Positions 6,123 through 39,918 of a stretch of DNA of 54,163 nucleotides are shown here, piece by piece (position 1 is the first letter of the stretch; each line of letters begins with the position of its first letter). Both the position numbers and the translations under genes were made by a program. The DNA is from a virus (Duplodnaviria > Caudoviricetes). Below the pieces are notes generated by a model. The model searched no databases and was not told the origin of the DNA. It saw only the letters and a list, made by a program, of their open reading frames with translations. The stretch lies in IMG/VR virus record IMGVR_UViG_3300021962_000139, positions 1 through 54,163 of that record. The stretch is one strand, 5' to 3'.

Positions 6123-6128
6123 ATAACT

Positions 6129-14700: not shown

Positions 14701-16396
14701 TACAGTTGTTAATGGTGGTATGCAACAAACATGGAATGTAATGAGTATGTATACTAAAGGGCAAAAAAATGACCTAAGAAAATATGTACAACAACAAACT
14801 GCTAAAGGTAATAACTTACCAGCTGATCTAGTTGAATATTTAGAAAATGGTGGGATGATATCTTACTCACAATCTCTATCTATTGAGAATGCATTTAATA
14901 GATTAAGACAAAGTATAAGAGAGAATAAAGATGGTATTGTTAGAACTAAACAAGGTGTAAAAGATTTCTTTGATATATGGATGAGTACCTTTGAGATGGC
15001 TACTCGGGCTGCTGCATATAGAACAGCAAAACAAAATTATATTACTAAAAATGCTCCAGGGCTTTCAGAAAATCAAATTCCTGCAAATGTAAAACAAGCT
15101 GCTATAGAAACAGCTACTGTGTATGCTAAAAGATTATCTAACTTTGAAGAGTCAGGTATACAAGGTGATAAAATGGCTGCATGGTTTATGTTTTTTAAAC
15201 CAAGTGCGGTGGGTATCATGAGAGCTTTTGAATCTTTTTCCGCAGCACTACAAAGAAAAGATATAGCAAAACAAAACTTACCAAATTATATTAAAGCTGA
15301 TCCTCAAAGATTAGCTACATGGGAAGCGGACTTTGATAAAAGAAGACAAGCAGCATTGACTACAATTGCAGTTGGTGTATCCGTTGGGTATGTTGCATGG
15401 CAAATGGCTGCTATGTTTAGTGGAGGTGATGATGATAATCCTACACGAGAAGATGATCCAGCGAGATGGACTAGATATTTAAGAGTTAGTTTAGGTTGGT
15501 TACCTGGTTTTGATAAAGATGCTGTATTACAAATACCTTGGGGTTTTGGTCCAGGTGGATTTGCTGCAATGGGAGCTCAGTTAGCAGCTGCGCAAAGTGG
15601 TAAAAATATTCCATTAGCTGATACATTAGGTAATATGTATAACATTATGTTAGATTCTTTTATGCCATTACCTTTTTCAAGAATGAGTCCTTTTGAACAT
15701 CCTCTTGGTTGGGTATTAGATACTGCTGCTCCATCTATTGCTAGACCTGCTGTAGAGTATGCTATTAATTTAAACGCTTTCGGACAAAATATTTATAGTC
15801 CATTACAAACTAGAAAATATGGTGGCGCATTTGGTGGTAGCGATGAAATACCTGAAGCGTATAAAGATGCTTCTAGATTCCTTGCAGAAATATCAGGTGG
15901 TTATATAAATTGGGGTCCCAATACAATAAGTTTTTTTGCAAATAACTATGGGGATGCTATAGCAAGAGTTGCTCATGATATATATGGTATTAGTTTATTC
16001 TTACGTGGACAGAAAGAATTTGATTTTAAACGAGATACTATATTCTTTGATAGTTTTATAAGTAAATATTCTAGGATTGAACAACGAGATTATAGTAAGC
16101 AAGTGGAAAGATTAAAGGCTTTAGAAACAAGAATTGACTTATTTAAAGACGCTAACCCAATAGAATATAATAAAGTTTTAAGTAAGTATCCTTCTGTACC
16201 TGTACTTATAGATGCATATAATCAACAAAAAGCAGATTTGGATAAATTAAATGACCAAGCATCCACAATAAGAAGAATGCCTGGATTAAGTCAAAAAGAA
16301 AGACAAGCTAGATTACAAGGTATTAAAGAATTACAACTATTATATAAGAAAAATATTGCAGCTATGATTGAAGTTGGGCTTGAGCAATATGACTAA
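8756..16396 (+). CDS. Giant internal virion (polyvalent) protein with a zincin-like HExxH domain and LPD38-like C-terminus
   Basis: 2546 aa; LLHEYVHA followed by EFIAEAF; C-terminal NFVRD, IPWGFG and NAFGQNIY motifs; last late gene. Confidence 0.65.
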   Translation: MPLYSIKGPDGKTYSIQGPAGASREQVIQAIQEKQSQPQQPQQPQQPQQPQQPGQLPEDAPDFTRGLKQYVNQYQGIYGASKVLAGKVANSDELIKSGVKDMQESEKKVAATGTKPTDEFTEAWERGIGSVLTDFVPYVAGQGVGMIGEALITSIAGGAAGSLIGPEGTVGGAVSGLLAKNIVKKGLKEAAEEIAKSEGRDAAKDFVEKEAAKRSQEYLASDVGRAEIKKIFRKSGSNIALYGMAGKFGAGEVTGRAVDEAIANIKDPNEQLQKIKELSTSKLAALSTAHAFADYIGLKIGLGSLDKLAKPTQDWLLNVAKNVGVTGLKEGTVEALQTILEREGANLPLNDKAAIKEYINAAAAGFAMPIIPATIGGLRTPKTPTNPTPDDINVDLSGDPKGPEPSPTPTEPSDRKGWKYTDEEIKRRDKIVQEQEKINLDKDKVDVDLDDADARMKALIAPEEVTKETIEKDYELPPYSEVDQALQETQDVTYVSGTEGPINKTDRGGLPISRQKLRQQRAKTDTANVEEVVGTTVDSTTNNVIGVTPGEGRTLAELGPVPYGYDRIQVGIKEIVTGKRADGKNLIQKEPVFVDRPKKDFVSEPYQYSLPLGEDQNNIYRNQLLKYYNLSSLQTKYEPSKLPYALTPAALEETDRIYTSILETNGKPAADRYLENKRNSSALFNQTDIDTKSPKVQGEVTPSIYATNNRDNARTYMVKNNIEADYYIDTEETSDGKIIAYTVKPRVTLNNLQPATIADFLIRDKGKNLNKFTNPLEFSKRPTETQVKNLLQTKLNTEQFNQVNKPGILKQITKQFEDRSSDQADGATPTQEKKARLSRELEFDIRVSNLPDYQKFIEKVKNIGATIPSFLKTGAVFNSKTHPINGARSIDDIIKAAIGDYIYEEASDVTDSYSTFPNNNTKIDKARRKKFRDEFINSPILEEYLTRSDEYDSIDAIKNDVEAFKKQIAKGTKYVESLDGNNNGKNIVDSLAAEEDRVLKQIARGQRDTKAINEAKSKLKAEAKKRIIENNALKKLLDVEIDELDIEDDMVNVINEITRSDILMDNIFDENNGEEEIKGFIRELSSTSKTVQLIKDTNGNSVEILKALSNRLNEQADQDVQTEKGVQYVAFKKAQAELARILSGIPGMNEVDTITVSKERLDEIHTDQSKILSETAKKRGQTWRANEEPSPNLNGFFTELNRVSKDFINSARTLIINEAKNKDVVVIRDDMNSGKTDAILLHEYVHAATVASIQYDMLTKAEKAKLDRLFNKATESAKERGKEYYGLTNIREFIAEAFTNYEFQKFLASIESEENTTLQEEGFFKTLFSDFIDFVATTLGLQSIDKTLLADVISVSPRLFKIGTRPYKGDNTRWNQWYKKALFRDKLDELRAIENRKDSDLTKFFRKKILDIRFPESLISAQEDLNNNRIDRIPSPKKIRYSEVLARKGEPVRSKGRDRSLDEIKEDLVKNYEKKDERVGHRIRSTFFGFLKNGDKVLTSAIKNFANRNIEIKKLQDKLQRSNLLLIGVDGFNNVFDQLTRAFGISDNYMKEMMPAFNEYSLALGDYIDLQKSKGLNEAEAKAQLQQWLTGLHESERREVRYLLDVPLSTEKIIRRKDGSLTSPADLRQNIMDQITTKVWSDATQKKADLENYKQTLRKLANQDTKISGKNTVDGVAGISYASPNKKGGPTDIVNSRYDVSTYNSEKAAILKAEIESIKRADPQLYQSIEHVKNSMQLINQQTLKLNQTANYASPQAMNIIEFYGWKNYVPLKHRQDAEGISEDAIFNPTGSRLSRELKKLEGSFEGNHNDAEDPFTQVLVDASRAAGRAGRINYTQSIYNAVTQTIDYTDPTTGKPVKGQAIEGKILKRFTYQQRYLNDPEIQEELDKKDTIVHLLSDGSMAIIQIKDPDLVEAIRGVYADNPTWVNTLNSFTGTIGQFHTRFNPPFATLNFVRDAITNLFYIGNEFGLKDLGGYASNIANTVVNGGMQQTWNVMSMYTKGQKNDLRKYVQQQTAKGNNLPADLVEYLENGGMISYSQSLSIENAFNRLRQSIRENKDGIVRTKQGVKDFFDIWMSTFEMATRAAAYRTAKQNYITKNAPGLSENQIPANVKQAAIETATVYAKRLSNFEESGIQGDKMAAWFMFFKPSAVGIMRAFESFSAALQRKDIAKQNLPNYIKADPQRLATWEADFDKRRQAALTTIAVGVSVGYVAWQMAAMFSGGDDDNPTREDDPARWTRYLRVSLGWLPGFDKDAVLQIPWGFGPGGFAAMGAQLAAAQSGKNIPLADTLGNMYNIMLDSFMPLPFSRMSPFEHPLGWVLDTAAPSIARPAVEYAINLNAFGQNIYSPLQTRKYGGAFGGSDEIPEAYKDASRFLAEISGGYINWGPNTISFFANNYGDAIARVAHDIYGISLFLRGQKEFDFKRDTIFFDSFISKYSRIEQRDYSKQVERLKALETRIDLFKDANPIEYNKVLSKYPSVPVLIDAYNQQKADLDKLNDQASTIRRMPGLSQKERQARLQGIKELQLLYKKNIAAMIEVGLEQYD
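8864..8914 (+). repeat. Tandem 9-bp repeat encoding (QQP)n
   Basis: CAACAACCA/T units giving QPQQPQQPQQPQQPQQP. Confidence 0.85.
10227..10430 (+). CDS. Probable overprinted 67-aa helical protein nested out of frame in the giant virion gene
   Basis: AGGAG at 10215-10219, 7 nt before the ATG; amphipathic protein-like sequence. Confidence 0.55.
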   Translation: MLHMYQELKDLSIKQIEEAFLYLDRNLDSNEPRPIPQTLKKLSELQWIALQIMLSELLQEKEEHSLN

Positions 16397-19427: not shown

Positions 19428-19739
19428 CTATAAATATTTATCTTGTATATTACTTAAATACTCCTTTGTAGATTTAGTAGTCTTTGCTGGTAAATCGCCA
19501 GAATCTAAATCTCTCTTAACATAATCAATAAATTTCATAATCTTTATACATTTTTCTTCTCTAATGTAATTACCACGAAACCATCCATGCACTGCCATTC
19601 TTGATACTCCAAAGAAGTTGGCAATACTATTAGCTGGTATATTTGCATCAACACAAAGTTTAGCTAATTGTATGCCAACTCTATTAGAATCAGCGTTGGA
19701 AAGTCCGACTAAAAATTTAGTACTATAAGGTCTTGCCAT
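19428..19739 (-). CDS. Helix-turn-helix DNA-binding protein (Cro/CI-like)
   Basis: ANSIANFFGVSRMAVHGWFRG HTH signature. Confidence 0.7.
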   Translation of the reverse strand: MARPYSTKFLVGLSNADSNRVGIQLAKLCVDANIPANSIANFFGVSRMAVHGWFRGNYIREEKCIKIMKFIDYVKRDLDSGDLPAKTTKSTKEYLSNIQDKYL

Positions 19740-22969: not shown

Positions 22970-23390
22970 GATATGATACCCTCTTACACCAAGTTACAAA
23001 TTCTTCTACACTCAGGTCACCTCTAAAGTTATTGATTGCCCTACAGACTAACTGAATATTATCATAATTATACTCTTTTCCTGCATTAATTCTATCTATA
23101 CTTGCATTAGTTAATATGATAGTACCACGTTTATGTACACAGGTTAACTCAACTCCTGACAAAGCACACTTATAGTCTTGTTCTGCTATCTTGCCTATTA
23201 ATTGAGCAACGGTTAGATTTGACTCTTTTTTAGACAGTAAGTGTTTAAAATATCTTTCCCAATCATTGTTCTCTCTTTCATATCTAGCATTGACCCTATA
23301 AATAGAATTACATTCGGGAGAACAATTAAGATATTTTGGGTGGTAAGTTTCAAACTTTGTATTACATGTAACACAGTTTCTTTTAAACAT
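22953..23390 (-). CDS. HNH-like endonuclease with N-terminal Zn finger
   Basis: CxxC...CSPEC; CALSG; SIDRINAGKEYNYDNIQLVCRAINNFR. Confidence 0.75.
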   Translation of the reverse strand: MFKRNCVTCNTKFETYHPKYLNCSPECNSIYRVNARYERENNDWERYFKHLLSKKESNLTVAQLIGKIAEQDYKCALSGVELTCVHKRGTIILTNASIDRINAGKEYNYDNIQLVCRAINNFRGDLSVEEFVTWCKRVSYHAICK

Positions 23391-23965
23391 TATTTATTCC
23401 AAGTAGCTTCATACTCAGTAGATAATTTTGTTTTAGGTATTTTTTTAGCGTATATTAATTTAGGTATAGTCTCAACTCGTTCAGATTTCTGTGTCATTCC
23501 TTTTGGATGAGCTTTTGTACTTCCTGCAGTTTTACCTAAACAAACCCAATTATCTGCTTTATATAAAGTTCCTTTTCTATAATCTGTTTCTATTACAAAT
23601 GTTTCAAATCCGTGTGGAATTACGTTATATCTTTCCAACCAATCTTGAGCACATCTTTTTCTCCACATTGCTAAAACTCTAGTCGCTAAATTTGGAACGT
23701 GTACTTCTAATCTAAAAACAGTATTATTAATAATAGAAGGCAGTCCTTTTCTTTTATTCTCTTTTGTTAATCCAAAAAAATCATCTCTAGCTTTTACTGC
23801 CCATACTGAACTTGCACCACTAATAATACCAACAATATTATTATCTAATTTTATTTTATAATGCATTTGCTGTCCATGAGTTCCTTTATTAGGGATATAA
23901 TGTCTGTTTCTTATTTCTTGATATATAGAATCTGTGCGTTTACATTTAATTAATTCTAAATTCAA
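23390..23965 (-). CDS. DUF4338 / Druantia DruA-like (Mom/GNAT-related) protein
   Basis: HY, NN, PNLATRVLA, ETFV and GTLYKADNWVCLGKTAG motifs; TTG start. Confidence 0.65.
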   Translation of the reverse strand: MNLELIKCKRTDSIYQEIRNRHYIPNKGTHGQQMHYKIKLDNNIVGIISGASSVWAVKARDDFFGLTKENKRKGLPSIINNTVFRLEVHVPNLATRVLAMWRKRCAQDWLERYNVIPHGFETFVIETDYRKGTLYKADNWVCLGKTAGSTKAHPKGMTQKSERVETIPKLIYAKKIPKTKLSTEYEATWNK

Positions 23966-29680: not shown

Positions 29681-29712
29681 GTTATTCCTTTTCTACCTGA
29701 CAGGGTGTCAGG

Positions 29713-30012
29713 TTACTTATTAATGGTTTGCTTACCCGTGATATATAATTCTAACATATTTATATTATGTTCGTCAATGACTATTGAAAGTCCGCCCGCA
29801 AAGCTAATATCATTTAGGTGTTTTAATTGAAGTAAGGTAGGTTTGTTTCCGTTGGCTTTACATTCTATTCCTATAAACTTACCCTGATAACATGCAATAA
29901 TATCAGGTATTCCGCTTGCACCATATCCACCCGTTGCAGGCATACAATGGTAACAACCTAGTTCATCTAATAGTTTCTTAACTCTTGTTTTAACTTTCTT
30001 TTCAGGTGTCAT
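29713..30012 (-). CDS. VRR-NUC / Holliday-junction resolvase-like nuclease
   Basis: TPEKKVK, GIPDII, IECKA and PTLLQ motifs. Confidence 0.85.
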   Translation of the reverse strand: MTPEKKVKTRVKKLLDELGCYHCMPATGGYGASGIPDIIACYQGKFIGIECKANGNKPTLLQLKHLNDISFAGGLSIVIDEHNINMLELYITGKQTINK

Positions 30013-30355
30013 TTTCTCCTAGTCCTAACAACGATAAAAATTCATTATGATGAATTATAACTATATAATAACTATCACTTGCTTTCCATGCTAAGTCAGG
30101 ATCTCCGCCATCTTCATGACAAATAAATAATTTACTAGGATCTAGCTGTTCATCAGAAATAGTATTATTAGATAATACATTTGCTACGGTAAGTTTAGAT
30201 GTAATAAAAGAAGGTAGAGTGGAAAGAGTATATATTCGCTTATTCTTTTTACCAATATGCACTATATAATCATCTCCACTCTTGTGAACGGGGACACGGA
30301 TATAATCCGTCATTTTGAAATGTGGTATAGGTTCTAGTTCGTGTTTAATTATCAT
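30002..30355 (-). CDS. Hypothetical protein
   Basis: Coupled ORF in the early operon. Confidence 0.6.
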   Translation of the reverse strand: MIIKHELEPIPHFKMTDYIRVPVHKSGDDYIVHIGKKNKRIYTLSTLPSFITSKLTVANVLSNNTISDEQLDPSKLFICHEDGGDPDLAWKASDSYYIVIIHHNEFLSLLGLGENDT

Positions 30356-31385
30356 CTATTACATAAGTCGCATACATTTGCCAAGTATTGTATTGAAGTT
30401 TAAGTGCGCCAACTCCAAACTCTACGGCATCTATTTTATCTTTATCAGAATTAAAGTATTCATCAATTTTAGGAATAACTTTATCAATTAACCAAGAAAA
30501 GCCTGATTTATTTGAATATTTATTTTCTATTTCTAATGACCACATTAATAATTTACTTTTAACTTTATCAAAGTCTTCGAAGTCTTCTATATTTTCATAC
30601 CCCTTGACTTCTCCAACTACTTGTAAACTTTTATATTGCTCATCTAACTTAGCTTTAAATATTACACAAGCATTACCATGTATCATTGGTTGTTTAATAA
30701 ATACATAAAAAGGTTTTGCAAGATCATTTTGTATATTCGTTAAACCTAAGTTAATATCATCGAACAATTTATCAAACTTGTCAAGTTTTTGTTTGTATGA
30801 ATCACTAAGTTCTATTGTTTTATCTTTCAATGAATGTAATAATAGCTGATGTAGTTCAACACCATTCATACTCATAGAATTATAATCTCGTTTAATAGAT
30901 GCTGTGTCTACATAGTCTGCTTGTATTTTTGCACCTATTGGGTTCTGTTTATTATGAATGTCTAATCCTAATATTTCTGCCGTTGTAATTGGCTTATTAC
31001 CACTAGGTAATCTAGTACTATGTAATTTAATTTTTCTAAGTATATCTTTTAAACTACTTGATCTAATAAACTTATGATCGCCTTTTTCTTTTAATCTTTT
31101 ATCTGTTGAATAATAATAGTTACCATTTCTATAAGATATGACCGCATTAATAATTCCGTTTTCAGTCAAGGCAACTGCATTAGCTTCTCCCTTATATGCC
31201 TCTTCTGCTCGTCTATCGTAAGGTTTAAAATCTAAATAGTCAGTATAACTTTCAACTAAAAATATCTTATTTAATACTTTCAAACCATAAGTATGACAAA
31301 CTTCATAGATGTATTCTAAAAACTTAGTATCCATAACTTCAATGTCATAATTTTCGTAGTACTTAAATTCCTTTTTAATTTGCAT
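30345..31385 (-). CDS. Hypothetical protein
   Basis: 346-aa ORF; AGGAGAG RBS. Confidence 0.75.
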   Translation of the reverse strand: MQIKKEFKYYENYDIEVMDTKFLEYIYEVCHTYGLKVLNKIFLVESYTDYLDFKPYDRRAEEAYKGEANAVALTENGIINAVISYRNGNYYYSTDKRLKEKGDHKFIRSSSLKDILRKIKLHSTRLPSGNKPITTAEILGLDIHNKQNPIGAKIQADYVDTASIKRDYNSMSMNGVELHQLLLHSLKDKTIELSDSYKQKLDKFDKLFDDINLGLTNIQNDLAKPFYVFIKQPMIHGNACVIFKAKLDEQYKSLQVVGEVKGYENIEDFEDFDKVKSKLLMWSLEIENKYSNKSGFSWLIDKVIPKIDEYFNSDKDKIDAVEFGVGALKLQYNTWQMYATYVIDDN

Positions 31386-31394
31386 TTCTCTCTC

Positions 31395-31586
31395 CTATCT
31401 ATTTCTCATAATGTTAGTGTTAATATAATTATCAATGTCTCTGAATATCATCTGCAAAGTATCATCTTCTATTACTTCACTACCTAATACCAAGTCCATC
31501 GTTTGAGTAACTTCTTTACCTTCTTTATCCCATATCCTCAACTCAACAGGGATTTTAATTTTAATATCATAATCAAACTCAGTCAT
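31395..31586 (-). CDS. Hypothetical protein
   Basis: AAGGAG RBS. Confidence 0.65.
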   Translation of the reverse strand: MTEFDYDIKIKIPVELRIWDKEGKEVTQTMDLVLGSEVIEDDTLQMIFRDIDNYINTNIMRNR

Positions 31587-31836
31587 AGTCTATCTCCTTA
31601 TTTCGTAATGCATCGGCTATCAAGTGAATCAAATCTTTGTTGTCTACTGAGTAGATATAATGTTCTAATAATCCCTCAATAATATGTTGCCGTTCCTTTT
31701 CACTTGGGTGTTCAAAGCATTTATACATCATTACTTTGTAAGCCATGCGATACTTGTCGGACGGTGTTGGGCAATTAGCTTCCACCTCGTTACACCAATA
31801 CTGCCATGTTTCGTCTTCAATGCTTGGCATACTCAT
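31579..31836 (-). CDS. Hypothetical protein
   Basis: Start re-assigned to the ATGA overlap (MSMPSI) with a GGGGAG RBS. Confidence 0.6.
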   Translation of the reverse strand: MSMPSIEDETWQYWCNEVEANCPTPSDKYRMAYKVMMYKCFEHPSEKERQHIIEGLLEHYIYSVDNKDLIHLIADALRNKEIDYD

Positions 31837-32069
31837 TCCATCTCTCCCCACCATTGACGCTCGTTTACCAAACATTTTGCTAGTTCATCAGTAGAGTATT
31901 TATTATATGAATCACACCCATCTAAATGTAGATTAACTATTGCTTCTAACATCTCTTCATGAGTAGCCGTATCCCATGACTGTCCTTTATAATCTAATAA
32001 CATATCTAATATCTCGTCTCGACTATATCTAGCTTTTATCTCTGCTATTTTGTATTCTCGGTTACTCAT
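31833..32069 (-). CDS. Hypothetical protein
   Basis: AAGGA RBS; ATGA coupling. Confidence 0.65.
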   Translation of the reverse strand: MSNREYKIAEIKARYSRDEILDMLLDYKGQSWDTATHEEMLEAIVNLHLDGCDSYNKYSTDELAKCLVNERQWWGEME

Positions 32070-33019
32070 ACAGTTTCCTTTCTTAAAACAACTTTTTGTA
32101 TTGGATTGCTTGGTATGTATCGTAATTCACATGGTGTAGATATTTCTTTGTACACTTCAAAAGTATCCCACACTAAATGTTTAAATGAATCTAACATATA
32201 ATTAACAGCACGCTCTACTTCTCCTTCAGGCACAGAAGATCTCCATTTCATGTAATGAAATATGGTACTGTTACTTTTTCCTCTATGAAATAATAAATCT
32301 CCTAGTGTTGCATAATCTTTTTGTTCAATTAAATCTTTAAGTATGTAACCTATCTCACTATCATTAAAGAATGTATTAGAGTATTTACTCTTTAGCCTTT
32401 CATCAATTTCTTTTTCTAATTCATCAAAACTTGAATTATTTATCTGTGATAGAATTGATTTCCAATAAGTTTTTATATACTTAAGTCCATCTTTGTGACC
32501 TGACAGTATGTCATGAGACTTTTTTCTATCAACTATCATTCTGACAATATCATATTTAGTCACAGGCTCATCAGATCTCATGTAATATTTCATTCCACGA
32601 TGCAATGGTAATGTAACTGCATATCTACCTTTTGCATCTAATACTTTTGCATATACAGATCCACCTCTTCGAACATCATGAAAGATAATTTGACCCTCGC
32701 TCCAATATCCTTGTGAGCATGAACCAAAAGAATCAGCATTTAATAAATTAAGAAAATGTCTTTCGCCTTGATAAATATCTTGCTCTTGTATCTCAACAAC
32801 ATCATCTTTATAAACACTAATTAGTTTAGTGTTGTAATAATATATATCAAACCCCAACAAGGTTTCTTGACTAAACTTTTTACCCGTTTCATAAATAGGT
32901 TTAAAGTATTTATATCCATGCCGTCTATTTAATACAGGATATTCATTATGCCTATTTCTGTATGGTTTATCGTTTTTTACTATATCAGCTAATATATCAA
33001 AATATACTTTCTCAAACAT
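32066..33019 (-). CDS. Hypothetical protein
   Basis: 317-aa ORF; AGGAG RBS. Confidence 0.75.
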   Translation of the reverse strand: MFEKVYFDILADIVKNDKPYRNRHNEYPVLNRRHGYKYFKPIYETGKKFSQETLLGFDIYYYNTKLISVYKDDVVEIQEQDIYQGERHFLNLLNADSFGSCSQGYWSEGQIIFHDVRRGGSVYAKVLDAKGRYAVTLPLHRGMKYYMRSDEPVTKYDIVRMIVDRKKSHDILSGHKDGLKYIKTYWKSILSQINNSSFDELEKEIDERLKSKYSNTFFNDSEIGYILKDLIEQKDYATLGDLLFHRGKSNSTIFHYMKWRSSVPEGEVERAVNYMLDSFKHLVWDTFEVYKEISTPCELRYIPSNPIQKVVLRKETV

Positions 33020-33020
33020 G

Positions 33021-33239
33021 CTACTCTCCTAAACATTGTAAGTTTGTTTTTACATACACAACACCATCATTTTCGCCCATTGCTTGATATGCTATGTTTT
33101 TATGACAGATATATACTGTATCTTTTTGTCTGTCTAAATAATCAAACATATCATACACTCGCATTGATAATGCCCCCATTGTAAGACCCAATACAAACCA
33201 ACACCCGACAGTGAATCGGTATATAATCTCTTTACTCAT
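33021..33239 (-). CDS. Small membrane-anchored protein
   Basis: N-terminal hydrophobic helix; GAGGAG RBS. Confidence 0.65.
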   Translation of the reverse strand: MSKEIIYRFTVGCWFVLGLTMGALSMRVYDMFDYLDRQKDTVYICHKNIAYQAMGENDGVVYVKTNLQCLGE

Positions 33240-33388
33240 GATGTAATCTCCTCTGCTTGAAACTCAGCATCATGCACTTCCCATGTTGATTGTTCTTGTG
33301 CTTTTAATATTGCCTGTTCTTCTGTTTGTGCAAACACCGTGATAGGTTTGCAATACTGTGTTATGTTTACTCTAAATATTTTACTCAT
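33236..33388 (-). CDS. Small protein (50 aa; not in the ORF track)
   Basis: MSKIFRVNITQYCKPITVFAQTEEQAILKAQEQ...; fills the gap and is coupled on both sides; GAGGAG RBS. Confidence 0.65.
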   Translation of the reverse strand: MSKIFRVNITQYCKPITVFAQTEEQAILKAQEQSTWEVHDAEFQAEEITS

Positions 33389-34560
33389 CATGCATACTCC
33401 TCTAAGTTTTGTTTAATAACCTGACACCCTGTCGGGATATAATTTTCATTTTCTGTTGTTACAAACAACGTTGGTGTTGACAAGTCCCATGTAGGTATTT
33501 CAAAGAAATAACCGTCAGTGAATACAATAACTGCCTGTGCGTTAATATTATTCTTAGCGATGTATTTCGGTATACAGGTTGGATCAGTCCCTCCACCCCC
33601 TTGTGGCTTTGCTTTACTAAATAGTCCATTGTAATCATTCTCAAATACTTGTTCACCATGAACCTCAGTGTCCCACCACAAAAGTCTAATTTTTTCAGGG
33701 TTGGCAATGTCGCAGATTGAAACCAGTTCTGTCAAAAATGCTGACAAGTATGTATCACTGATAGAACCTGACGTATCTATACCTACTACCAACTCACCTA
33801 CACGCTCATCTTCCATGCTTGGCATATAAATATCATTAGCGACAAGTCGTTTGTTATACTTTCGCCATGTATACTCATCAGTGCCACGCATTTGTGATGT
33901 AATAAAATCTCTCAAGATATCTTTCCAACTTAGCTTGGGCTCTAGCATTTGTGTAATACCTCTTGGCACTTTACCTTTCAGTCTACCTGCTAGTATAGAA
34001 CCCTCTCGTAATGCTCGATCAATCTTATCACTTAGTGCTTTCTGTTCTTGTGGTGATAGACCTTCTCCCTCATCACCATCAAAGTCATGCTCATCTAATG
34101 AACCTAAGTTAGGTTGGTTACCTTTCTCTTGTTCTTGTTTCAAGTCATTCATAACTTCTCTGACAGACCAATTATGATACTTCGCATTGTATAACCCACC
34201 TTGTGGTAAGTGACATACAGATTTATCTTCCAGACTCATGATGATGTCATTTACAACATAATCTGCTGATGCATTCACAAATTGTGGATCATCGTTAAAC
34301 TCTTTCTTAAAGCGTTGAATATGTTTCAATGCTATGTGTAAGTTCTCGTGTAGAATCAGACCTCGTAGTTCCTCATCAGATAAAGATTCCATAAACTTCC
34401 TACCATACTTTTTATTGAACCCATCTGTGCATGCCGTTGGAATATCATCTACAACTTCATTCTTACCCATCATCATGATGCCTGAGTAAAGTGCAGTCTC
34501 AGGGTGTCTCATCAAAGTGATGTGTGCTTTCTTAAGTCTTGTTTCTTGTGTGATACTCAT
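33388..34560 (-). CDS. Metallopeptidase-vWA protein (DUF2201-like)
   Basis: TACTDG; HENLH (HExxH); MIDAS DTSGS; GGGGTD; FTDG. Confidence 0.85.
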   Translation of the reverse strand: MSITQETRLKKAHITLMRHPETALYSGIMMMGKNEVVDDIPTACTDGFNKKYGRKFMESLSDEELRGLILHENLHIALKHIQRFKKEFNDDPQFVNASADYVVNDIIMSLEDKSVCHLPQGGLYNAKYHNWSVREVMNDLKQEQEKGNQPNLGSLDEHDFDGDEGEGLSPQEQKALSDKIDRALREGSILAGRLKGKVPRGITQMLEPKLSWKDILRDFITSQMRGTDEYTWRKYNKRLVANDIYMPSMEDERVGELVVGIDTSGSISDTYLSAFLTELVSICDIANPEKIRLLWWDTEVHGEQVFENDYNGLFSKAKPQGGGGTDPTCIPKYIAKNNINAQAVIVFTDGYFFEIPTWDLSTPTLFVTTENENYIPTGCQVIKQNLEEYA

Positions 34561-34593
34561 ATCTCATAATCCTTTCTGACACCGTGTCAGGTG

Positions 34594-35655
34594 TTAAAAT
34601 AAGTCGTAGTTATCGGTTGCCCATTTCGCTATGTCCGCATTGGATCTAGCAATGGCTCGGCATTGTTTACTACGCACACACATTGTAAAGAATATTGCTT
34701 GTATCTCAGACGAATTAATACGCTTAACGAATCTCATGAATTTAGATAACTCGTCTTGTGTCTTAATCTTGTCTGTCGCTTGGAACATTACCATCAACTG
34801 TGCTGAGATTTCTGTTGGTATTTTAGTAGTATCAGGATTATTGATGATGTCCTCATACTTAGGTAATTGTTTCTCTAGCGATAGAAATGCTGACATATCT
34901 GCCGATGCACTTAACCCAATAGTGCCTGACAATGCGCACATTGTGGCTACCTCTCCTAGTGTGTCTCGGTTAGAGACAATGACCGATGACTTAGCTAAAG
35001 ATCGTGGCGATACAAAACTCAACTGTGGTTTCTTTGGGTTGAATATGTATGGGTTGTCATCTTGTCCCTCATCTAAGTAACTATTCAATGATCTAGGGAA
35101 CATGTGGACCCACGCTCTAATCAATGGGTGTATGCCATTATCACCCGCCCAAGCTAACCAATCTTCAACTCGTGGCTTTTCCATTTGCAAGATACAAACT
35201 CGGTTACCCGCATGAGCCATCATCGTATCGCCTACTCCATCGCTTTGATTGTTCGATGTGCCAAACACAATAGAACCCTCAGGTAACTTTGTATCACCTA
35301 CGCATCTCTCTAGCATGAGCCTAGTAAAAATAACTTGTAGTAATTTCGGTGCTTTCATAAACTCATCAAGTAAGATAATCTTAGGCTTTGCACTATCTAG
35401 TTTGAACAATGAACCAACATAGGTTTCAAGTGTTCGTGTTTCATGGTTAGGAATAGTCATCGCTATGTCTTGCATGTCCTTAACGGGGCAATCAACATAG
35501 ATGTAATCATATTTGTCACCATGTTCTTCCTCTAACATCTTAAGTAAAGATGTCTTGCCACACCCGGGCTCTGATTGAATAATAGGTGTAAGATCTTTAC
35601 CAATAGTATAAATAAGTGTTACTAACTCTCTAATTGTTACTCTCTGTGTATGCAT
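34594..35655 (-). CDS. MoxR-like AAA+ ATPase
   Basis: EPGCGKTS, LLDE and SPRS motifs; adjacent to the vWA gene. Confidence 0.85.
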   Translation of the reverse strand: MHTQRVTIRELVTLIYTIGKDLTPIIQSEPGCGKTSLLKMLEEEHGDKYDYIYVDCPVKDMQDIAMTIPNHETRTLETYVGSLFKLDSAKPKIILLDEFMKAPKLLQVIFTRLMLERCVGDTKLPEGSIVFGTSNNQSDGVGDTMMAHAGNRVCILQMEKPRVEDWLAWAGDNGIHPLIRAWVHMFPRSLNSYLDEGQDDNPYIFNPKKPQLSFVSPRSLAKSSVIVSNRDTLGEVATMCALSGTIGLSASADMSAFLSLEKQLPKYEDIINNPDTTKIPTEISAQLMVMFQATDKIKTQDELSKFMRFVKRINSSEIQAIFFTMCVRSKQCRAIARSNADIAKWATDNYDLF

Positions 35656-35694
35656 GTTGCTCTCCTAGTTTGCATACCTGACACCATGTCAGGT

Positions 35695-36621
35695 TTAAAT
35701 TGAAAATTTAGATAGAATGTCGTCAATATCATTCTTCACTCTATCTCTTGTATAGTCTGAATCTCGTAACATATCAGTAGACACACCCTCTAATGCATCA
35801 TCTAATTGTTTCGCTACTGATCTAAGTTTCTGACTATGTTCGTTGTCTACATATCTAAAAGCCCCTATCGTGCGACACAAGTCTTTGGCTTTTTCGATGG
35901 TTGTATCATATATCTTTCGTTTCTTTGTTGTAGTCTCGCCGTCTTTGGTAGTAATCTCTTGCGTTCCACAGCAATGTGCGATACTCTCCATGACATCAAT
36001 GATTCTTTCTGTTTGTTGATGTAATACATTTTTAACTATCTCCCTTGCTTGTCTTTCATAAGTAATTTTTAAGTCAGATGCTAAGTCACTCGCTACCTGA
36101 CACCTAAAGTCCTGTTCGGGAACTTCTGATATGTACAATCTACACCCAAACTTTCTACGAACTTCAGCTACTTCAGGATAGTCCTCTCGGTTATACATAT
36201 CCCCCTGACTAAAAGCCATGTTTGATTTAATAGAATCATATTTATCACAGAACACATCTAGTAATCTATTAAACTCCCTCTCATGCTTGTCATACTCTGA
36301 TTTAAAAGTTTCTAAGCTGATGGTTGGCAGTAAGTCCTGGGCGTTGTTCCACCTGTATGTGCTACGCTTAAGCCAATTATAAATAGTCTGTCTATAATTC
36401 ACTAAGTCCTTGTGGTATGGGTTGTTAGATAATAGATTCTTAACAAACCGACCTGCATTAGGATCTGCTTTCTTTGATGTTGTTACCTCGCTTGAGATAA
36501 CTCGATCTTGTTTTGTTGCTGACCAAACATTCACATCAACTGATACCAACACTGCCGATGTTGCTAGTGATACGATATGACTTGGTTGTTGTAGCTTAAC
36601 TTCTTGTTCAAAGTTATACAT
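35695..36621 (-). CDS. Conserved helical phage protein (DUF3150-like)
   Basis: YPEVAEVRRKF motif; precedes the AAA/vWA pair. Confidence 0.55.
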   Translation of the reverse strand: MYNFEQEVKLQQPSHIVSLATSAVLVSVDVNVWSATKQDRVISSEVTTSKKADPNAGRFVKNLLSNNPYHKDLVNYRQTIYNWLKRSTYRWNNAQDLLPTISLETFKSEYDKHEREFNRLLDVFCDKYDSIKSNMAFSQGDMYNREDYPEVAEVRRKFGCRLYISEVPEQDFRCQVASDLASDLKITYERQAREIVKNVLHQQTERIIDVMESIAHCCGTQEITTKDGETTTKKRKIYDTTIEKAKDLCRTIGAFRYVDNEHSQKLRSVAKQLDDALEGVSTDMLRDSDYTRDRVKNDIDDILSKFSI

Positions 36622-36713
36622 AATGTCTCTCCATGTAAAAAGAGCCTGACACGGTGTCAGGCTCGTAAAATAAATTTAAATAAAAACTAAGGTAAATTTT
36701 CATTCTACTTATT

Positions 36714-36742
36714 ATTATACTACATCTTTACTAATATGTCAA
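36714..36742 (-). promoter_or_regulatory. Consensus sigma70 early promoter
   Basis: TTGACA-TATTAGTAAAGATGTAG (17 nt)-TATAAT on the minus strand. Confidence 0.85.
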
Positions 36743-36783
36743 TAGAGATTCTAATTTACCATACCTGTTTATTTTTCTAATAA

Positions 36784-36954
36784 TTAATCCTCTCTTTGAG
36801 CGAACTGTTCAATGTCATTTATCAACTGTCTATCTTCTATATCAAAGTTAGACCCCCTGTCATAGCTATCCCTAGCCCATGATTCTTTCTCAGACTTAAT
36901 CTTGCGTCTGTTTGCTAATATAATTTTTATATCTTCTGAATTAGTTATACTCAT
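36784..36954 (-). CDS. Hypothetical protein (56 aa; not in the ORF track)
   Basis: MSITNSEDIKIILANRRK...; ATGA overlap; GGGGGA RBS. Confidence 0.55.
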   Translation of the reverse strand: MSITNSEDIKIILANRRKIKSEKESWARDSYDRGSNFDIEDRQLINDIEQFAQRED

Positions 36955-37151
36955 TTAATTAATCCCCCTTTGTTGTTGATGCCTTTCAAGTCATCGTAGT
37001 TTGTGAATAACATATAATTGCTCTTGTGCATTGGTGCTACACAATGCTTAACTTTCTCGGCTTGTCTTTCTCCACAGTCCAAACAAACCTTGAAACCTAG
37101 TTTTGCTCTATCGCTAGAGAATTCATTACCACATAGATTACAGGTAGTCAT
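36951..37151 (-). CDS. C4 zinc-finger protein (DksA/TraR-type finger)
   Basis: MTTCNLCG...RAKLGFKVCLDCG; GAGGA RBS; ATGA overlap. Confidence 0.7.
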   Translation of the reverse strand: MTTCNLCGNEFSSDRAKLGFKVCLDCGERQAEKVKHCVAPMHKSNYMLFTNYDDLKGINNKGGLIK

Positions 37152-37351
37152 AGTCCAATCCTCACTTGATACATCGCCCATATAATAAGAACAGTCAACA
37201 CGCCCATGAGATATGCCATAGCACATGACATGATCATATCAATCTTACGTTGTTTACGATCTTGTATTTGGAACTCAGGTAACATGCGATGATACCTTAA
37301 ACTGTCTTCCCAATACCTTTGTATTGAATCTTCACTTAGTTTCTTATTCAT
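37148..37351 (-). CDS. Small membrane protein
   Basis: C-terminal transmembrane helix; AGGAG RBS. Confidence 0.65.
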   Translation of the reverse strand: MNKKLSEDSIQRYWEDSLRYHRMLPEFQIQDRKQRKIDMIMSCAMAYLMGVLTVLIIWAMYQVRIGL

Positions 37352-37392
37352 AACTATCTCCTAATATAATAATAACTGACACCCTGTCAGGT

Positions 37393-37701
37393 TTAAATAC
37401 CATTAAGCTCATTGTTGTACACATAATCTTTATTGCCCTTTGCAAAGCGAACTAATGTATATTGCCTACCTCCACGCATACGCATCGCATCGCCTGTTAC
37501 ACCTAAATATTTACCATAAACTCTAACTAAAGAGCCTTGTAAATATTTAGTCGCATTGACTATCGCATAGAATATACTGTCATCACGGCTCAACGATGTA
37601 TCACATCTTCTAAAATGTTTATACAAAGTAATGAACTGTGATGCCAAGCCAAGTTTCTTAGCGTTCGCATATTCGCTACTAAATAAATAGTGTAAATCCA
37701 A
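37393..37701 (-). CDS. Hypothetical protein
   Basis: TTG start with GAGGAG RBS; flanked by two palindromes. Confidence 0.65.
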   Translation of the reverse strand: MDLHYLFSSEYANAKKLGLASQFITLYKHFRRCDTSLSRDDSIFYAIVNATKYLQGSLVRVYGKYLGVTGDAMRMRGGRQYTLVRFAKGNKDYVYNNELNGI

Positions 37702-37783
37702 AGTTTAACTCCTCAAACCTGACACCCTGTCAGGACAAAAAAATAAAAAATTGAAAGATGTAATTCGCTTCTCTCATTATATT

Positions 37784-37812
37784 ATTATACCACAAGTTTA
37801 CTAACAAATCAA
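37784..37812 (-). promoter_or_regulatory. Sigma70 early promoter with extended -10
   Basis: TTGATT-17 nt-TATAAT with TGn; spacer shares TTAGTAAA with the 36714 promoter. Confidence 0.75.
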
Positions 37813-37949
37813 GGGCTTTTCAAATTTTGTGGGGTACTAAATATATCGTTTTTTACAAATTGGGGTATAGTGTTTCTAGTATGCGTAGCGTTGAGACTTT
37901 GTTCATGTAATGTTTTCTTAGATGATGGGTGTTGTATTCGACTGGGTTT

Positions 37950-38406
37950 TTGTTCCGTTCCAAGCTAAGTTTACTAATGGAACAAGTGAGCTTTGTGTAA
38001 ATCTTGTTCCAAATAACTTTACTAATTTAAGGTGTTTTCTCTGTAAGTGCTTGATTTTATTCATGTTCCACGAAATATGACCCTGTAACTTTACTAATGG
38101 AACGGAACAAGAGGATAGGCAATGAGCTAAGTTGTTGTTTTTATTATATATAATATTATATAGTTATAGTTAAATTAGTGTTTTGTTCCAATGTTCCAGT
38201 GGTTTTGTAGGACGATGGGGGAATGTAAAGTTAGGTTGCACTGCAAAAACAAGGCGAACGATGCCTAAAACTTTACTAACCAGCATATCCTGTTAAAAAT
38301 AGTTGGAACATTGGAACAAACCTAGTTAAGTCGTTGATATACAAAGTAAAATCTTGTTCCAGACTACGTCATCAAGTTGGAACAAAGTAAATCTCGTTGG
38401 AACAAA
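37950..38406. other. Putative replication origin (TGTTCC/GGAACA iterons, IHF-like sites, AT-rich core)
   Basis: Non-coding; inverted repeats 37950-37962/38098-38110 and 38182-38198/38304-38320; IHF consensus at 38044 and 38327; AT tract ~38135-38177. Confidence 0.6.
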
Positions 38407-38632
38407 GCCTGACAGGGTGTCAGGCATGATAATTCTTGGTGATGCCACGCTCGCTCGCTCGGAACTGGTTTCAGAATAGTTGAAATACGGTTATAATATT
38501 TGTGTCAGCTATGATAATCATAGTAGAAACTAAACCTGACAGGGTGTCAGGTCGTCCTCGCAACGTGAGGCGCTCGCACGCGCGCGGGGGGAACTGGTTT
38601 CAAAAGGGGAAGCATACTAGAAAATTCAGGGC

Positions 38633-38670
38633 AAAAAAAAGCCCCACACGGCTTTTGACCATGTGGGGCT
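38633..38670 (-). terminator. Rho-independent terminator
   Basis: AGCCCCACATGG-TCAAAAG-CCGTGTGGGGCT followed by a T run on the minus strand, just after the 38680 stop. Confidence 0.9.
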
Positions 38671-38679
38671 AGGGATAGC

Positions 38680-39462
38680 TTACTTCAATGATGCGATTGC
38701 TTTAGTTAGAATCTCATCACACTTACTGACAGCGTCAGACCAGATTTTCTGTTGCTTAGCGGAGGGTAACTTCTCAACTAAGTTTTTCTGAGATTTGACC
38801 CAATTAAGAGATTTGGTTTCAATCTCATCAACAGGATCAACTTCCTCATTGATCAAGCCGTAAGTACTTGCAAGGTACTTAACGATGCGGCCCTTGATTC
38901 GGCTAACATTTTGATCAATGGTATTTTTACAAGTAGTCCTTGTATCATTCGCAAGTTTCTTAAATGATATACCATAAGAACCCATTGGATTGGATGTAGT
39001 ACCATCCTTTTTTATGGCATAGCTTAGAGCCTGCCAATTTTGGGTAAGGATATAACTCATTCCAAACGATTTAATATCATCAGGATTAAAATCAATTCCT
39101 TGCTTATGGGCGGATACTTCCGCAACATCTGGATCAACATATTCAGATCCGTTGTCGTACATCCTGACAACTTTATCCTTGTATGCTTCACCAGCTAAAA
39201 CGCCCTCAGTTACTCCGCTTGTGATAGCTTCGGTAACTTCATCAGGGGCATTTTGCCATGCGTCCGCAACTTCATCCCGATATTCTTCCATCGTTTTTCC
39301 CTCGGGTGATCTAGCCTTGATTAGCTTAGAGCTAATGAATTGCTCGATCACTTTCGCGATTGCTTCCGCTTTTGCGATTGCTTCGGTTGATGAAATAACG
39401 AACCCTTTACTATCTGATTTAAGCGTTGATAGCACCGCTTGATTTAGCGTTGTATTTTCCAT
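38680..39462 (-). CDS. Hypothetical protein, stand-alone early gene
   Basis: 260 aa; AGGAG RBS; own terminator. Confidence 0.8.
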   Translation of the reverse strand: MENTTLNQAVLSTLKSDSKGFVISSTEAIAKAEAIAKVIEQFISSKLIKARSPEGKTMEEYRDEVADAWQNAPDEVTEAITSGVTEGVLAGEAYKDKVVRMYDNGSEYVDPDVAEVSAHKQGIDFNPDDIKSFGMSYILTQNWQALSYAIKKDGTTSNPMGSYGISFKKLANDTRTTCKNTIDQNVSRIKGRIVKYLASTYGLINEEVDPVDEIETKSLNWVKSQKNLVEKLPSAKQQKIWSDAVSKCDEILTKAIASLK

Positions 39463-39791
39463 CGCTAATACTCCTATAAAATATGTTGTCCATGATTAAC
39501 CCTGTGTCAATCAATCGCAACATGGTGTAATTATGTATTAAATGACAGACAAAAGCCAAAAATAGTAAACTTATTTTTACTAACCTGACATAGTGTCAGG
39601 TTTCGCGTGGTATAAATAAGCCCCTACCCTATACCCACCAACCCAAAACAAAATGGGACTCCGACAGCGTGCTTACGCACTAAGACTTGCATGAATTACT
39701 AGAACAAAATTGAAAACCGCAGACCCCCACCCCCTCTATATAGGAACACCCCCCGTCACTTAAATAAAAGGATGGTTATGTAAAAAATATA

Positions 39792-39918
39792 TTGCACAAT
39801 TTAATAAAAGGCATATAATATTAATCAAGGTATAGATGATCTTCCTTTCATAATTTCTCATCTTTCCTTGTAGTAATTAACTTCCTCATGCCCCGGTAAC
39901 TCTCTGCCGGGGTTTTTT
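39792..39918 (+). ncRNA. Candidate ~90-nt sRNA with its promoter and terminator
   Basis: TTGCAC-16-TATAAT (39792-39819); no + ORF; terminator CCCCGGTA-ACTCTC-TGCCGGGG-T6 (39891-39918). Confidence 0.5.

Follow-up and report, generated by a model that had tools for sequence, protein, structure and literature searches.

Palindromes confined to the early region of a tailed phage and replaced by others in its relatives: candidate recognition sites for a lineage-specific factor

What kind of element recurs eleven times within one block of early genes and nowhere else in the genome of a phage, and what might read it? The question is raised by the IMG/VR virus record IMGVR_UViG_3300021962_000139 (Duplodnaviria; Caudoviricetes), an uncultured aquatic phage in which the palindrome CCTGACA-N3-TGTCAGG (CCTGACANNNTGTCAGG) punctuates the early genes. 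The record is linear, 54,163 b long and 86% complete according to CheckV; it was analysed in its entirety and is called the window (W) here, so that a motif scan of the window is a genome-wide scan. Related viral contigs are given L-numbers and long related records G-numbers. An earlier note, made from the sequence of this DNA by eye, had listed eleven copies and proposed that they act like the stoperators of mycobacteriophages, or as recombination anchors, or as sites acting on first-injected DNA, or as mRNA hairpins.

The array is a real, non-random and region-restricted system. There are 7 exact matches to the motif in the window compared with 0 in 100 shuffles, and when up to one mismatch is allowed across the 14 arm bases, eleven sites are recovered, all of them at the positions listed earlier and all inside 29,696-39,600 (9.9 kb of the 54-kb record), where none is expected by chance. 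None lies elsewhere in the record, which bears out the confinement to one ~10-kb region that had been judged by eye, and a reversed-pattern control over the whole record gave 0 sites. The 8-1-8 form favoured in the earlier note finds exactly the same sites with up to three mismatches (0.04 expected); only 2/11 copies are perfect 8-1-8 palindromes, and the copy at 34575 fits only if its outermost pair is allowed to be mismatched. Among contigs from four runs, none of the 40 variant positions listed falls in a palindrome; with 440 further variants beside them, this says nothing about conservation. No Rfam family reached its gathering score anywhere in the window, matches within 36.5-40.2 kb were at chance level only (E 0.38-0.93), no tRNAs were found in the window, and megablast of the array region against cultured phages gave no match. 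Literature searches, with supplementary files outside their scope, returned no description of the array or of repeats in this phage group.

The genes of the array region are on the minus strand, and the claims of the earlier note about stop codons and ribosome-binding sites (RBSs) hold when they are read there. At four junctions the order is stop codon, 0-2 nt, palindrome, 14-23 nt with a Shine-Dalgarno (SD) sequence, and start codon. The copy at 29696..29712, with exact arms, lies 0 nt past the stop of a Hjc-like gene and 15 nt before the GTG start of a DUF3310 gene; that at 34575..34591, with one arm mismatch, lies 2 nt past the ATPase stop and 14 nt before a DUF2201 start; the exact copy at 35677..35693 lies 1 nt past the stop of a 308-aa gene and 21 nt before the ATPase start; and that at 37375..37391, with one arm mismatch, lies 1 nt past the stop of 37393-37701, with the start of 37148-37351 following 23 nt later. 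Two copies do indeed bracket each of three genes, those for the ATPase and the 308-aa protein and the 37393 gene, and the label 'DUF3150-like' given to the 308-aa gene (35695-36621) finds no support in Pfam or PHROG. Two copies lie inside open reading frames (ORFs), as noted before: a degenerate one with one arm mismatch at 32499..32515, inside ORF 32066-33019 and possibly a relic, and one with one arm mismatch at 33420..33436, in the 3' end of the DUF2201 gene and 28 nt upstream of the next start (33391). The latter, tolerated as it is inside the upstream ORF so as to keep this distance, shows that the downstream start is the relevant reference. A start codon follows within 14-28 nt of 7/11 copies.

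Two copies are found ~43-46 nt downstream of strong sigma70-type promoters. One of these promoters, at 36714..36742 on the minus strand, matches the consensus at 12/12 positions (TTGACA-17-TATAAT), carries a TTAGTAAAG box in its spacer, and has a -10 box that ends 52 nt ahead of the palindrome at 36645-36661; together with a flanking GAG/CTC pair, this palindrome makes a 10-bp stem followed by TTTTT (36642..36664, minus strand), and the resulting hairpin, in the leader of the gene for 308 aa, is attenuator-like. The other, at 37784..37812 on the same strand, is a TG-extended promoter with 10/12 matches (TTGATT-17-TATAAT) and a TTAGTAAAC box in its spacer; 49 nt after its -10 box, and 16 nt before the TTG start of 37393-37701, lies the exact copy at 37718..37734. 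The remaining three copies are in non-coding DNA flanking the gene 38680-39462 and an origin-like region. In our own ORF set, all seven intergenic gaps of at least 30 nt between 29.6 and 40.1 kb contain a copy, whereas three gaps of 53-68 nt further downstream on the same strand contain none.

Relatives carry other palindromes at the equivalent places. Using the ATPase as a probe we retrieved 68 related viral contigs, or 69 sequences with the window. The same palindrome is present in eight relatives (ATPase 77-100% identical; 4-11 copies each), and most of the others have a different palindrome of their own, also in multiple copies. At least 13 palindrome families occupy equivalent positions, with one sequence per genome in 3-14 copies; they include CCTAGAA-N2-TTCTAGG, TCCGTGATATCACGGA, CCTGTCA-N3-TGACAGG, CGTGAGT-N2-ACTCACG, TTCTGGG-N5-CCCAGAA, TTCAGGG-N2-CCCTGAA, GCGTTAG-N4-CTAACGC, CCTAACA-N1/2-TGTTAGG, GCGACAT-N-ATGTCGC, AGTGTCA-N3-TGACACT, and TTCCACG- and TGTCGAA-type palindromes. 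At least three copies of one of 13 families, with up to one arm mismatch, are present in 40/69 sequences, and many of the remaining 29 are short fragments; shuffled loci contain at most two copies of any palindrome with 6-mer arms (10 shuffles of L025 and 5 of L074). At least six unrelated families occur among phages whose ATPase is 73-83% identical to that of the window, which points to fast turnover.

Where long records are available, the sites are again clustered: in five of them they are confined to ~10 kb, or ~13 kb in one. All 10 sites of G001 (66.7 kb, complete) lie in 52.0-62.0 kb, all nine of G003 (44 kb) in 25.0-33.9 kb, all 13 of G005 (52 kb) in 17.7-27.3 kb, and four of the five of G002 (62.9 kb) in 22.6-26.3 kb (3.7 kb). 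Where the 308-aa gene adjoins the ATPase gene, a syntenic junction, the palindrome is replaced precisely between homologous flanks; in L018-L028 and L032-L050, this junction is a compact stop-RBS-start arrangement without a palindrome.

A possibly related regime may exist in a cultured phage. Rhizobium phage RHph_TM3_14A (MN988472.1; L074/L195) has 55 copies of GTTACC-N5/6-GGTAAC with up to one mismatch (at most one in shuffles), spread over its whole 60.9-kb genome at a spacing of 1051 +/- 742 bp. Thirty-six of the 55 are inside coding sequences, in both transcription blocks, which fits recognition at the level of DNA, and 14/55 fall between -20 and +30 nt relative to an annotated start (7.3% at random). 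This phage is available as an experimental system; no paper naming it was found in the literature searched. Pseudomonas phage KPP25 has no such array.

To describe the placement of the sites across the group, we pooled 184 non-redundant sites from 10 families; related genomes are included, so these counts are not independent events. A start preceded by an SD sequence follows 5-39 nt downstream of 108/184 sites (116/920 random positions), and 48/184 lie 0-14 nt past an ORF stop (43/920 random positions). A sigma70-type promoter matching at least 10/12 positions is present within 110 nt upstream of 36/184 sites as opposed to 33/1840 controls, and in 23 of the 184 its -10 box ends 45-54 nt upstream (2/1840 controls). 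This spacing holds in four palindrome families, the AGTGTCA family having a spacing of 38-43 nt. The other 148 copies have no strong promoter within 110 nt.

Two further positions recur outside these gene junctions. One is a non-coding unit found family-wide, in which a GA(A/T)ACCAGTTCC box is followed by an alternating CG/TG-rich tract and then by the lineage's own palindrome; it is present in L007, L008, L012, L013/15, L019/20, L062 and L043/45/47/52, and twice in the window. In the first window unit, a conserved GAAACCAGTTCC box at 38590..38601 (minus strand) precedes the alternating CG/TG-rich tract, and the exact copy at 38535..38551 closes the ACCAGTTCC unit; in the second, the GAAACCAGTTCC box is at 38461..38472 (minus strand), and after a GC-rich tract the unit is closed by the exact copy at 38408..38424, which has an additional G/C pair at its ends and TTTGTT after it. 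A -10-like TATGAT hexamer (38517..38522, minus strand) lies 12 nt downstream of palindrome 38535, which thus overlaps the -35 position, and across the group a -10-like hexamer stands exactly 12-13 nt downstream of 8/21 origin-unit sites and of 0/163 other sites. Such a fixed offset is not something that an mRNA hairpin explains. The unit could be an origin element, or it could specify a small RNA of ~100 nt running from TATGAT 38517-38522 to palindrome 38408; in unit 1 (38520-38615) we also observe a GAAAC/GUUUC stem that closes around the palindrome hairpin. Between the second unit and the copy at 37718 lies a non-coding block (37735..38407) that, read by eye, resembles an origin, with GTTCC/GGAAC iteron-like repeats, TTAGTAAAS boxes and an AT-rich stretch, and from which we infer an origin function.

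The other recurrent position is the head of the array, where in every lineage examined a copy lies just upstream of the promoter of a gene for a 205-292-aa protein. In the window this 'slot' gene (38680..39462, minus strand) is hypervariable, encodes 260 aa and has its own terminator, a canonical intrinsic one with a 13-bp GC-rich stem and T7 (38640..38670, minus strand) that is unlike the palindromes. The exact copy at the array head (39584..39600), whose stem is lengthened by two A-U pairs when folded as RNA, lies upstream of the predicted slot gene promoter, a prediction that is weak in the window (9/12) and clearer in L014/L015, and a TTAGTAAA box follows directly after the palindrome.

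Is the palindrome read as DNA or as RNA? Within a genome, the arms are invariant and the centre is free, occurring in both orientations on the gene strand; the flip between CCC and GGG seen in the earlier note is confirmed, and in the CCTGACA family the centres are CTA 22/TAG 11, CCC 6/GGG 7, CCG 3/CGG 3 and CCA 3/TGG 6. Fixed arms around a flipping centre suggest a symmetric, probably dimeric, factor that binds double-stranded DNA (dsDNA), and several of the families are perfect palindromes up to the centre. Stem-mediated minute inversions produce centre flips between near-identical strains. Between W and L005, strains that are 98% identical, the centre base of the perfect 8-1-8 palindrome at 36645 (position 1983 of L005) differs (C or G), exactly the change that inversion of the palindrome would give, and flips of this kind between near-identical strains imply that the centre is not read. 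The origin-unit and array-head copies are outside the transcripts that they would regulate. Compensatory double changes are few, 5/33, all at the outermost position in L066/L074 and none in the lineage of the window, a weak test. Taken together, the common denominator would be a sequence-specific recognition site, more likely on dsDNA.

Which protein might read such a site? The earlier note had put forward the XRE-type helix-turn-helix (HTH) protein encoded at 19428..19739 (minus strand), a conserved core gene present in 20/30 records and in 9/9 of those at least 90% complete. We rejected it as the palindrome binder, as genomes that differ in their palindrome can share one and the same predicted recognition helix: SRMTIYSWF is found alongside GCGACAT as well as AGTGTCA, and TRMTLHSWF alongside TTCAGG as well as TTCCAC. 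As its helix does not co-vary with the palindrome, the HTH protein more likely reads a conserved box. One such box, TTAGTAAAS, has 8 matches in the window where 2.5 are expected, six of them within 36.7-38.3 kb; on the minus strand it is found at 36726-36734 and 37796-37804, in the spacers of the two strong early promoters, and within 37969-38279, and palindrome 39584 is followed immediately by a similar box. A second, conserved regulator probably binds TTAGTAAAS, and the HTH protein is a candidate for this role. A conserved 91-aa zinc-ribbon ORF was also rejected as the reader, being 72% identical to its counterpart in L016/17, which have another motif, and 51-54% identical to those of L006-8, which have the same one. 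Pfam searches of 20 small early ORFs gave no HTH and only weak zinc-ribbon hints.

The slot protein behaves differently. In 20 genomes its phmmer clusters coincide with the palindrome families (six clusters, six families), matching CCTG[A/T]CA, CCCTAGAA, TTC[T/A]GGG, CCTAACA and two singletons, and hhalign between clusters gave probabilities of 1-2%, with no detectable homology. Among phages at a similar distance from the window, L013-15 (ATPase 75% identical) have a slot protein and a palindrome that are both unrelated to those of the window, and L019/20 (73-74%) have a weakly related slot protein and a palindrome that differs at one arm position. In a confident predicted model (pLDDT 88.5, pTM 0.70), helices make up most of the protein, one of them 40 residues in length and another two also long; a model of the L047-type slot protein (pLDDT 71), compared by order alone, has a similar helix/strand order. 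A first pattern scan of viral contigs had found no relative of the slot protein. In L056, the slot gene is duplicated in tandem (4680-5297 and 5266-6132, 78% identity), with a palindrome copy before each. From this pattern of co-occurrence, the slot protein 38680-39462 is the best candidate for the specificity factor, an unproven candidate only.

We therefore lean, tentatively, towards a reading in which the palindrome is the site of a lineage-specific, sequence-specific factor, most likely a phage-encoded dimeric dsDNA-binding protein, that gates early transcription. Such a factor, which could be the hypervariable protein 38680-39462, would gate transcription of the ~10-kb early/replication block by the host RNA polymerase. 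Copies at ~+40 to +47 of strong early promoters, before the RBS, and intercistronic copies, with the next start 5-39 nt downstream, would serve as roadblocks or for shut-off, in the manner of stoperators; copies over the -35 of the origin-proximal promoter-like unit would control transcription at the origin; and the copy upstream of the hypervariable gene's promoter would allow the factor to control its own gene. A bolder version, which strikes us as rather unlikely, is that the slot gene and the palindromes form a swappable 'specificity cassette', immunity-like without lysogeny, in apparently virulent podophages. A slot protein of undescribed fold would then read its private palindrome and control both the early transcription units and origin-proximal transcription, and diversity would be driven by co-infecting relatives, since those sharing sites would cross-regulate or exclude each other; the array of RHph_TM3_14A would be an expanded form.

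Several observations weigh against a dsDNA-binding slot protein as the reader. The TTCAGGG palindrome predicted for L041, from a slot protein 39% identical to that of L056, is absent; W and L012 share their motif at only 27% slot-protein identity, and L062 combines the motif of the window with an L019-type slot protein. Recombination could simply have passed on the slot gene together with the sites next to it. The protein has no Pfam, PHROG or named homologue, and its model gave no match in PDB or BFVD at E<=0.001 (best TM-score 0.19). As for the sites, tight coupling to a downstream RBS is not required of a pure roadblock. At the leader site of the 308-aa gene, the stem is lengthened in most lineages by 3-8 bp of complementary, lineage-specific flanks (GAG/CTC, GAC/GTC, GAA/TTC, GATAC/GTGTC, CCAGAC/GTTTGG, ACTTG/CAAGT and GGACAG/TTGTCC), and overall 14/154 flank contexts (9.1%) have a Watson-Crick extension of at least 3 bp compared with 2.4% for shuffled partners. 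The 96-nt leader of the window, in which the 10-bp palindrome stem is followed by U5, folds at -26.4 kcal/mol (z -4.9; 0/200 shuffles as stable).

These last features are what one would expect if the palindrome acted at the level of RNA, as a hairpin in early transcripts that is an attenuator or terminator, a 5' or 3' stabiliser left after processing, or a target whose stem is read by an RNA-binding protein or endoribonuclease specific to the lineage, and that sets transcript ends or the translation of the gene just downstream. Cas6-type enzymes, for example, read the stems of CRISPR repeats. The frequent SD-preceded starts 5-39 nt downstream (108/184), the position of promoter-associated copies at ~+40 to +47 of the predicted transcript, and the GAAAC/GUUUC stem around the hairpin of unit 38520-38615 are in keeping with such a role. 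However, structure alone does not explain why the arms are identical at all copies of a genome, and the centre, which would be the loop, is free and flips, whereas hairpin readers such as lambda N read the loop. Neither the arm mismatches (G.T 8 vs A.C 14) nor the extensions (33 sense-longer, 26 antisense-longer, 95 equal) show a clear sense-strand G.U bias; the copies flanking the ATPase, like most intercistronic copies, have no extension and fold weakly (z-scores of -0.1 to -2.1 for the intercistronic copies). Copies upstream of or overlapping promoters, including those of L014/L015, would not be in the relevant transcript, and the Rhizobium phage keeps 36/55 copies in coding sequences of both transcription blocks. 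The mRNA hairpin raised in the earlier note has the co-varying extensions and the strongly folded leader in its favour at the leader site. As a general account, an RNA-level element is the main rival to recognition as DNA, and we consider it possible and on the doubtful side; it probably applies to a subset of sites, and for 36645, 38408, 38535 and 39584, which are in longer hairpins, an attenuator or terminator role is likely superimposed on recognition as DNA.

Other explanations dispense with a regulator altogether or place it elsewhere. The palindromes might be cassette boundaries at which early genes are shuffled, as in PeSL modules, or a selfish miniature palindromic insert that spreads between stop and RBS, with regulation secondary. 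Mosaicism marks the early region; edges of blastn blocks coincide with 33420 in 4/6 comparisons and are also found at 36645, 37718 and 38535; two loose ends in other samples start at the edge of a palindrome (35670 and 39603); a junction may have or lack the insert; and the W/L005 flip at 36645 shows hairpin-type mutational dynamics. Breakpoints fall equally at palindrome-free gene boundaries, however, so that the association is confounded with intergenic position, which leaves the recombination anchors of the earlier note a weak idea. Moreover, 17 bp with unrelated flanks would be a poor substrate for homologous exchange, the fixed geometry to promoters and -10 boxes across families is unexpected of a selfish insert, the palindrome is precisely replaced within homologous flanks at syntenic junctions, and no transposase or RAYT-like gene was found among the ORFs scanned; we judge recombination or mobility to be an improbable primary role. 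It is very improbable, in our view, that the palindromes are N4-type promoters, in which case the DNA would extrude hairpins for an injected virion RNA polymerase concealed within the 2546-aa ORF at 8756-16396. A 7-bp stem with a 3-nt loop resembles the N4 early promoters as described in excerpts of PMC4496689, copies lie just upstream of early genes, and the giant protein is probably ejected. Yet the centre flips, while the N4 enzyme reads strand-specific bases of loop and stem (same excerpts, PMC4496689); the units already have consensus sigma70 promoters ahead of them; the distance from stem to start is in some cases only 10-15 nt; and the giant ORF has only LPD38/LPD39/ART-PolyVal affinities, with no PDB sequence match at E<=1, although the N4 mini-virion RNA polymerase has a solved structure, 2PO4 (PMC4496689, in part). 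A motif derived from or mimicking the host, be it a host REP, a solitary mimic of a CRISPR repeat (Racr) or a site bound by one of the host's transcription factors, would let lineage-specific turnover reflect host switches, and Racr-type repeat mimics exist in phages according to part of PMC10651486. Against this, a scan of 185,579 species genomes gave at least 120 matching stretches, and among the 80 listed, 78 have a single site and two have two sites, in unrelated taxa; the multi-copy unit in a cellular genome that marks REP and Racr elements does not occur among these listed matches. The conserved unit is 17-19 bp with unconserved flanks, and CRISPR repeats are longer than that. Finally, unrelated palindromes at 73-83% ATPase identity suggest a turnover faster than host change, and a host origin seems hardly credible.

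Does the array belong to a known family of repeated phage motifs? Its closest functional likeness may be to the stoperators of Cluster A mycobacteriophages such as L5 and Bxb1: in both there are many copies of a short site, a few in promoters and most between genes, the consensus differs between related phages, and a block to elongation by the host polymerase is proposed (here on inference). Stoperators, as described in excerpts of PMC6550527 and PMC9283540, are asymmetric, oriented with transcription, spread genome-wide in 20-30 sites and bound by an immunity repressor that acts as a monomer, and the phages that carry them are temperate. In contrast, the sites described here have symmetric 7-bp arms and are free in orientation, with the centre occurring both ways (CTA 22/TAG 11, CCC 6/GGG 7); eleven of them are packed in 9.9 kb, and they are likewise clustered in G001, G003, G005 and mostly in G002; their reader is a candidate only, and integrase is found in 0/5 records. 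With respect to a repressor that co-varies with its sites, the consensus does vary by lineage, the HTH protein does not co-vary, and the slot protein tracks the families, with one failed prediction. The stoperator-like idea of the earlier note thus stands as far as real repeated sites, a few in promoters and most not, are concerned; membership of the family fails on symmetry, orientation and spread. The lambda nut/boxB element likewise is a lineage-specific interrupted palindrome tens of nt past early promoters, beside a fast-diverging early gene, but boxB is read through its loop and has two copies per genome, whereas here the centre flips freely, there are 3-14 copies, and one canonical terminator was seen in the block.

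ESAS elements of Cluster K mycobacteriophages also are inverted repeats just upstream of starts, with a consensus by sub-lineage and a position kept by gene family, and association with starts is found here as well (108/184 vs 116/920 controls). Excerpts of PMC3203893 and PMC12699233 describe 17-bp imperfect arms, a spacer of 4-13 bp and an attached conserved 13-bp SAS that includes the RBS, and according to the latter, a 2025 paper, the function of ESAS still requires experimental verification (PMC12699233). The palindromes studied here differ in having exact arms of 7-12 bp, a spacer of 0-6 bp and no SAS-like box, their flanks being unconserved beyond a generic SD, and they come from phages of an unrelated family and host range. 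PeSL modules of T4-like phages likewise are repeated and lie in a plastic early region; in the parts of PMC2839356 and PMC4122927 that bear on them, each joins a stem-loop and a near-consensus sigma70 promoter to an SD and a start, the region is rich in ORFans, and the stem-loop is a terminator of loosely conserved sequence just upstream of the promoter. Here, an invariant palindrome lies ~50 nt downstream of the -10 instead (45-54 nt in 23/36 promoter-associated copies), and 148/184 copies have no strong promoter within 110 nt. PeSL modules also are places where insertions, deletions and replacements concentrate; in the phages compared here, block edges fall at some of the sites and at plain gene boundaries as well. 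N4 promoters are alike in being small hairpin-forming palindromes upstream of early genes; they have a 5-7-bp stem and a 3-nt loop, and need a purine at -11, G at -10 and -8, and the encapsidated RNA polymerase (excerpts of PMC4496689), whereas here a centre triplet and its reverse complement are both found on one strand, and the giant ORF has no RNA polymerase match, although a very divergent polymerase there is conceivable. It is plausible but unproven that the array works most like a stoperator/operator system, and it is a member of none of the families compared.

The rest of the genome is that of a tailed phage with recognisable genes for terminase, portal, virion proteins, a DNA-ejection protein and a 2546-aa LPD38 'polyvalent' ORF. 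The minus-strand early/replication block encodes SprT-like and Kae1/carbamoyltransferase-like proteins, the MoxR-type ATPase, a DUF2201 metallopeptidase/VWA protein, the Hjc-like resolvase, DUF3310, PolA, a RecB-type nuclease, an SNF2 helicase and a DUF927 primase-helicase. That no integrase is visible had been stated before and agrees with the result for PF00589, found in 0/5 records (the window and four relatives, two of them complete). The nearest cultured phages, RHph_TM3_14A and KPP25, are distant, with PolA ~35% identical. DNA of this phage is present in 20 public runs from 14 studies of marine, estuary, freshwater, lagoon and landfill metagenomes, 0/20 of which are recorded as RNA. The 2546-aa ORF (8756-16396, plus strand), whose atlas neighbours are polyvalent-protein clusters (LPD39, ART-PolyVal), follows the DNA-ejection protein gene and probably encodes an ejected multi-domain protein. 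An ORF at 23390-23965 (minus strand) matches the Druantia DruA domain (PF14236, E 4e-21) and adjoins a PD-(D/E)XK nuclease gene. Contigs from runs X4, X5 and X7 join 37133 to 31581 with 12-15 unrelated letters between, showing that related strains differ in domain or gene arrangement around the zinc-ribbon ORF and ORF 31579-31875. Upstream of the first palindrome, the non-coding stretch ~39605-39690 is 81% identical to L012, better conserved than neighbouring genes; on the gene strand it includes GGAGTCCCA and then a G-rich tract, which L007, L008, L012 and L047/52 have too, and it may be a genome-end or packaging-related element. Beyond it, at ~39793-39913 on the plus strand and opposite the early block, there is a possible small RNA, with a TTGCAC-16-TATAAT promoter read by eye and an intrinsic terminator (39890-39913, plus strand) ~95 nt past it; matches to small RNAs in Rfam are at chance level (E ~0.4).

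Repeated private motifs such as stoperators, SAS/ESAS and PeSLs are among the few handles on gene timing in phages without an RNA polymerase of their own, and most of them remain unexplained. The array described here provides an unusually clean comparison, in which at least 13 palindrome families have been swapped through the same positions within one phage family, with a conserved geometry relative to sigma70 promoters, RBSs and the origin-proximal unit, and in which one hypervariable gene tracks the motif family, imperfectly. The question of what reads the sites, and of why their specificity turns over fast in phages without lysogeny genes, is thereby made testable, and a cultured distant relative exists for such tests. 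If the factor were found, the family would provide a set of orthogonal protein-operator, or protein-hairpin, pairs.

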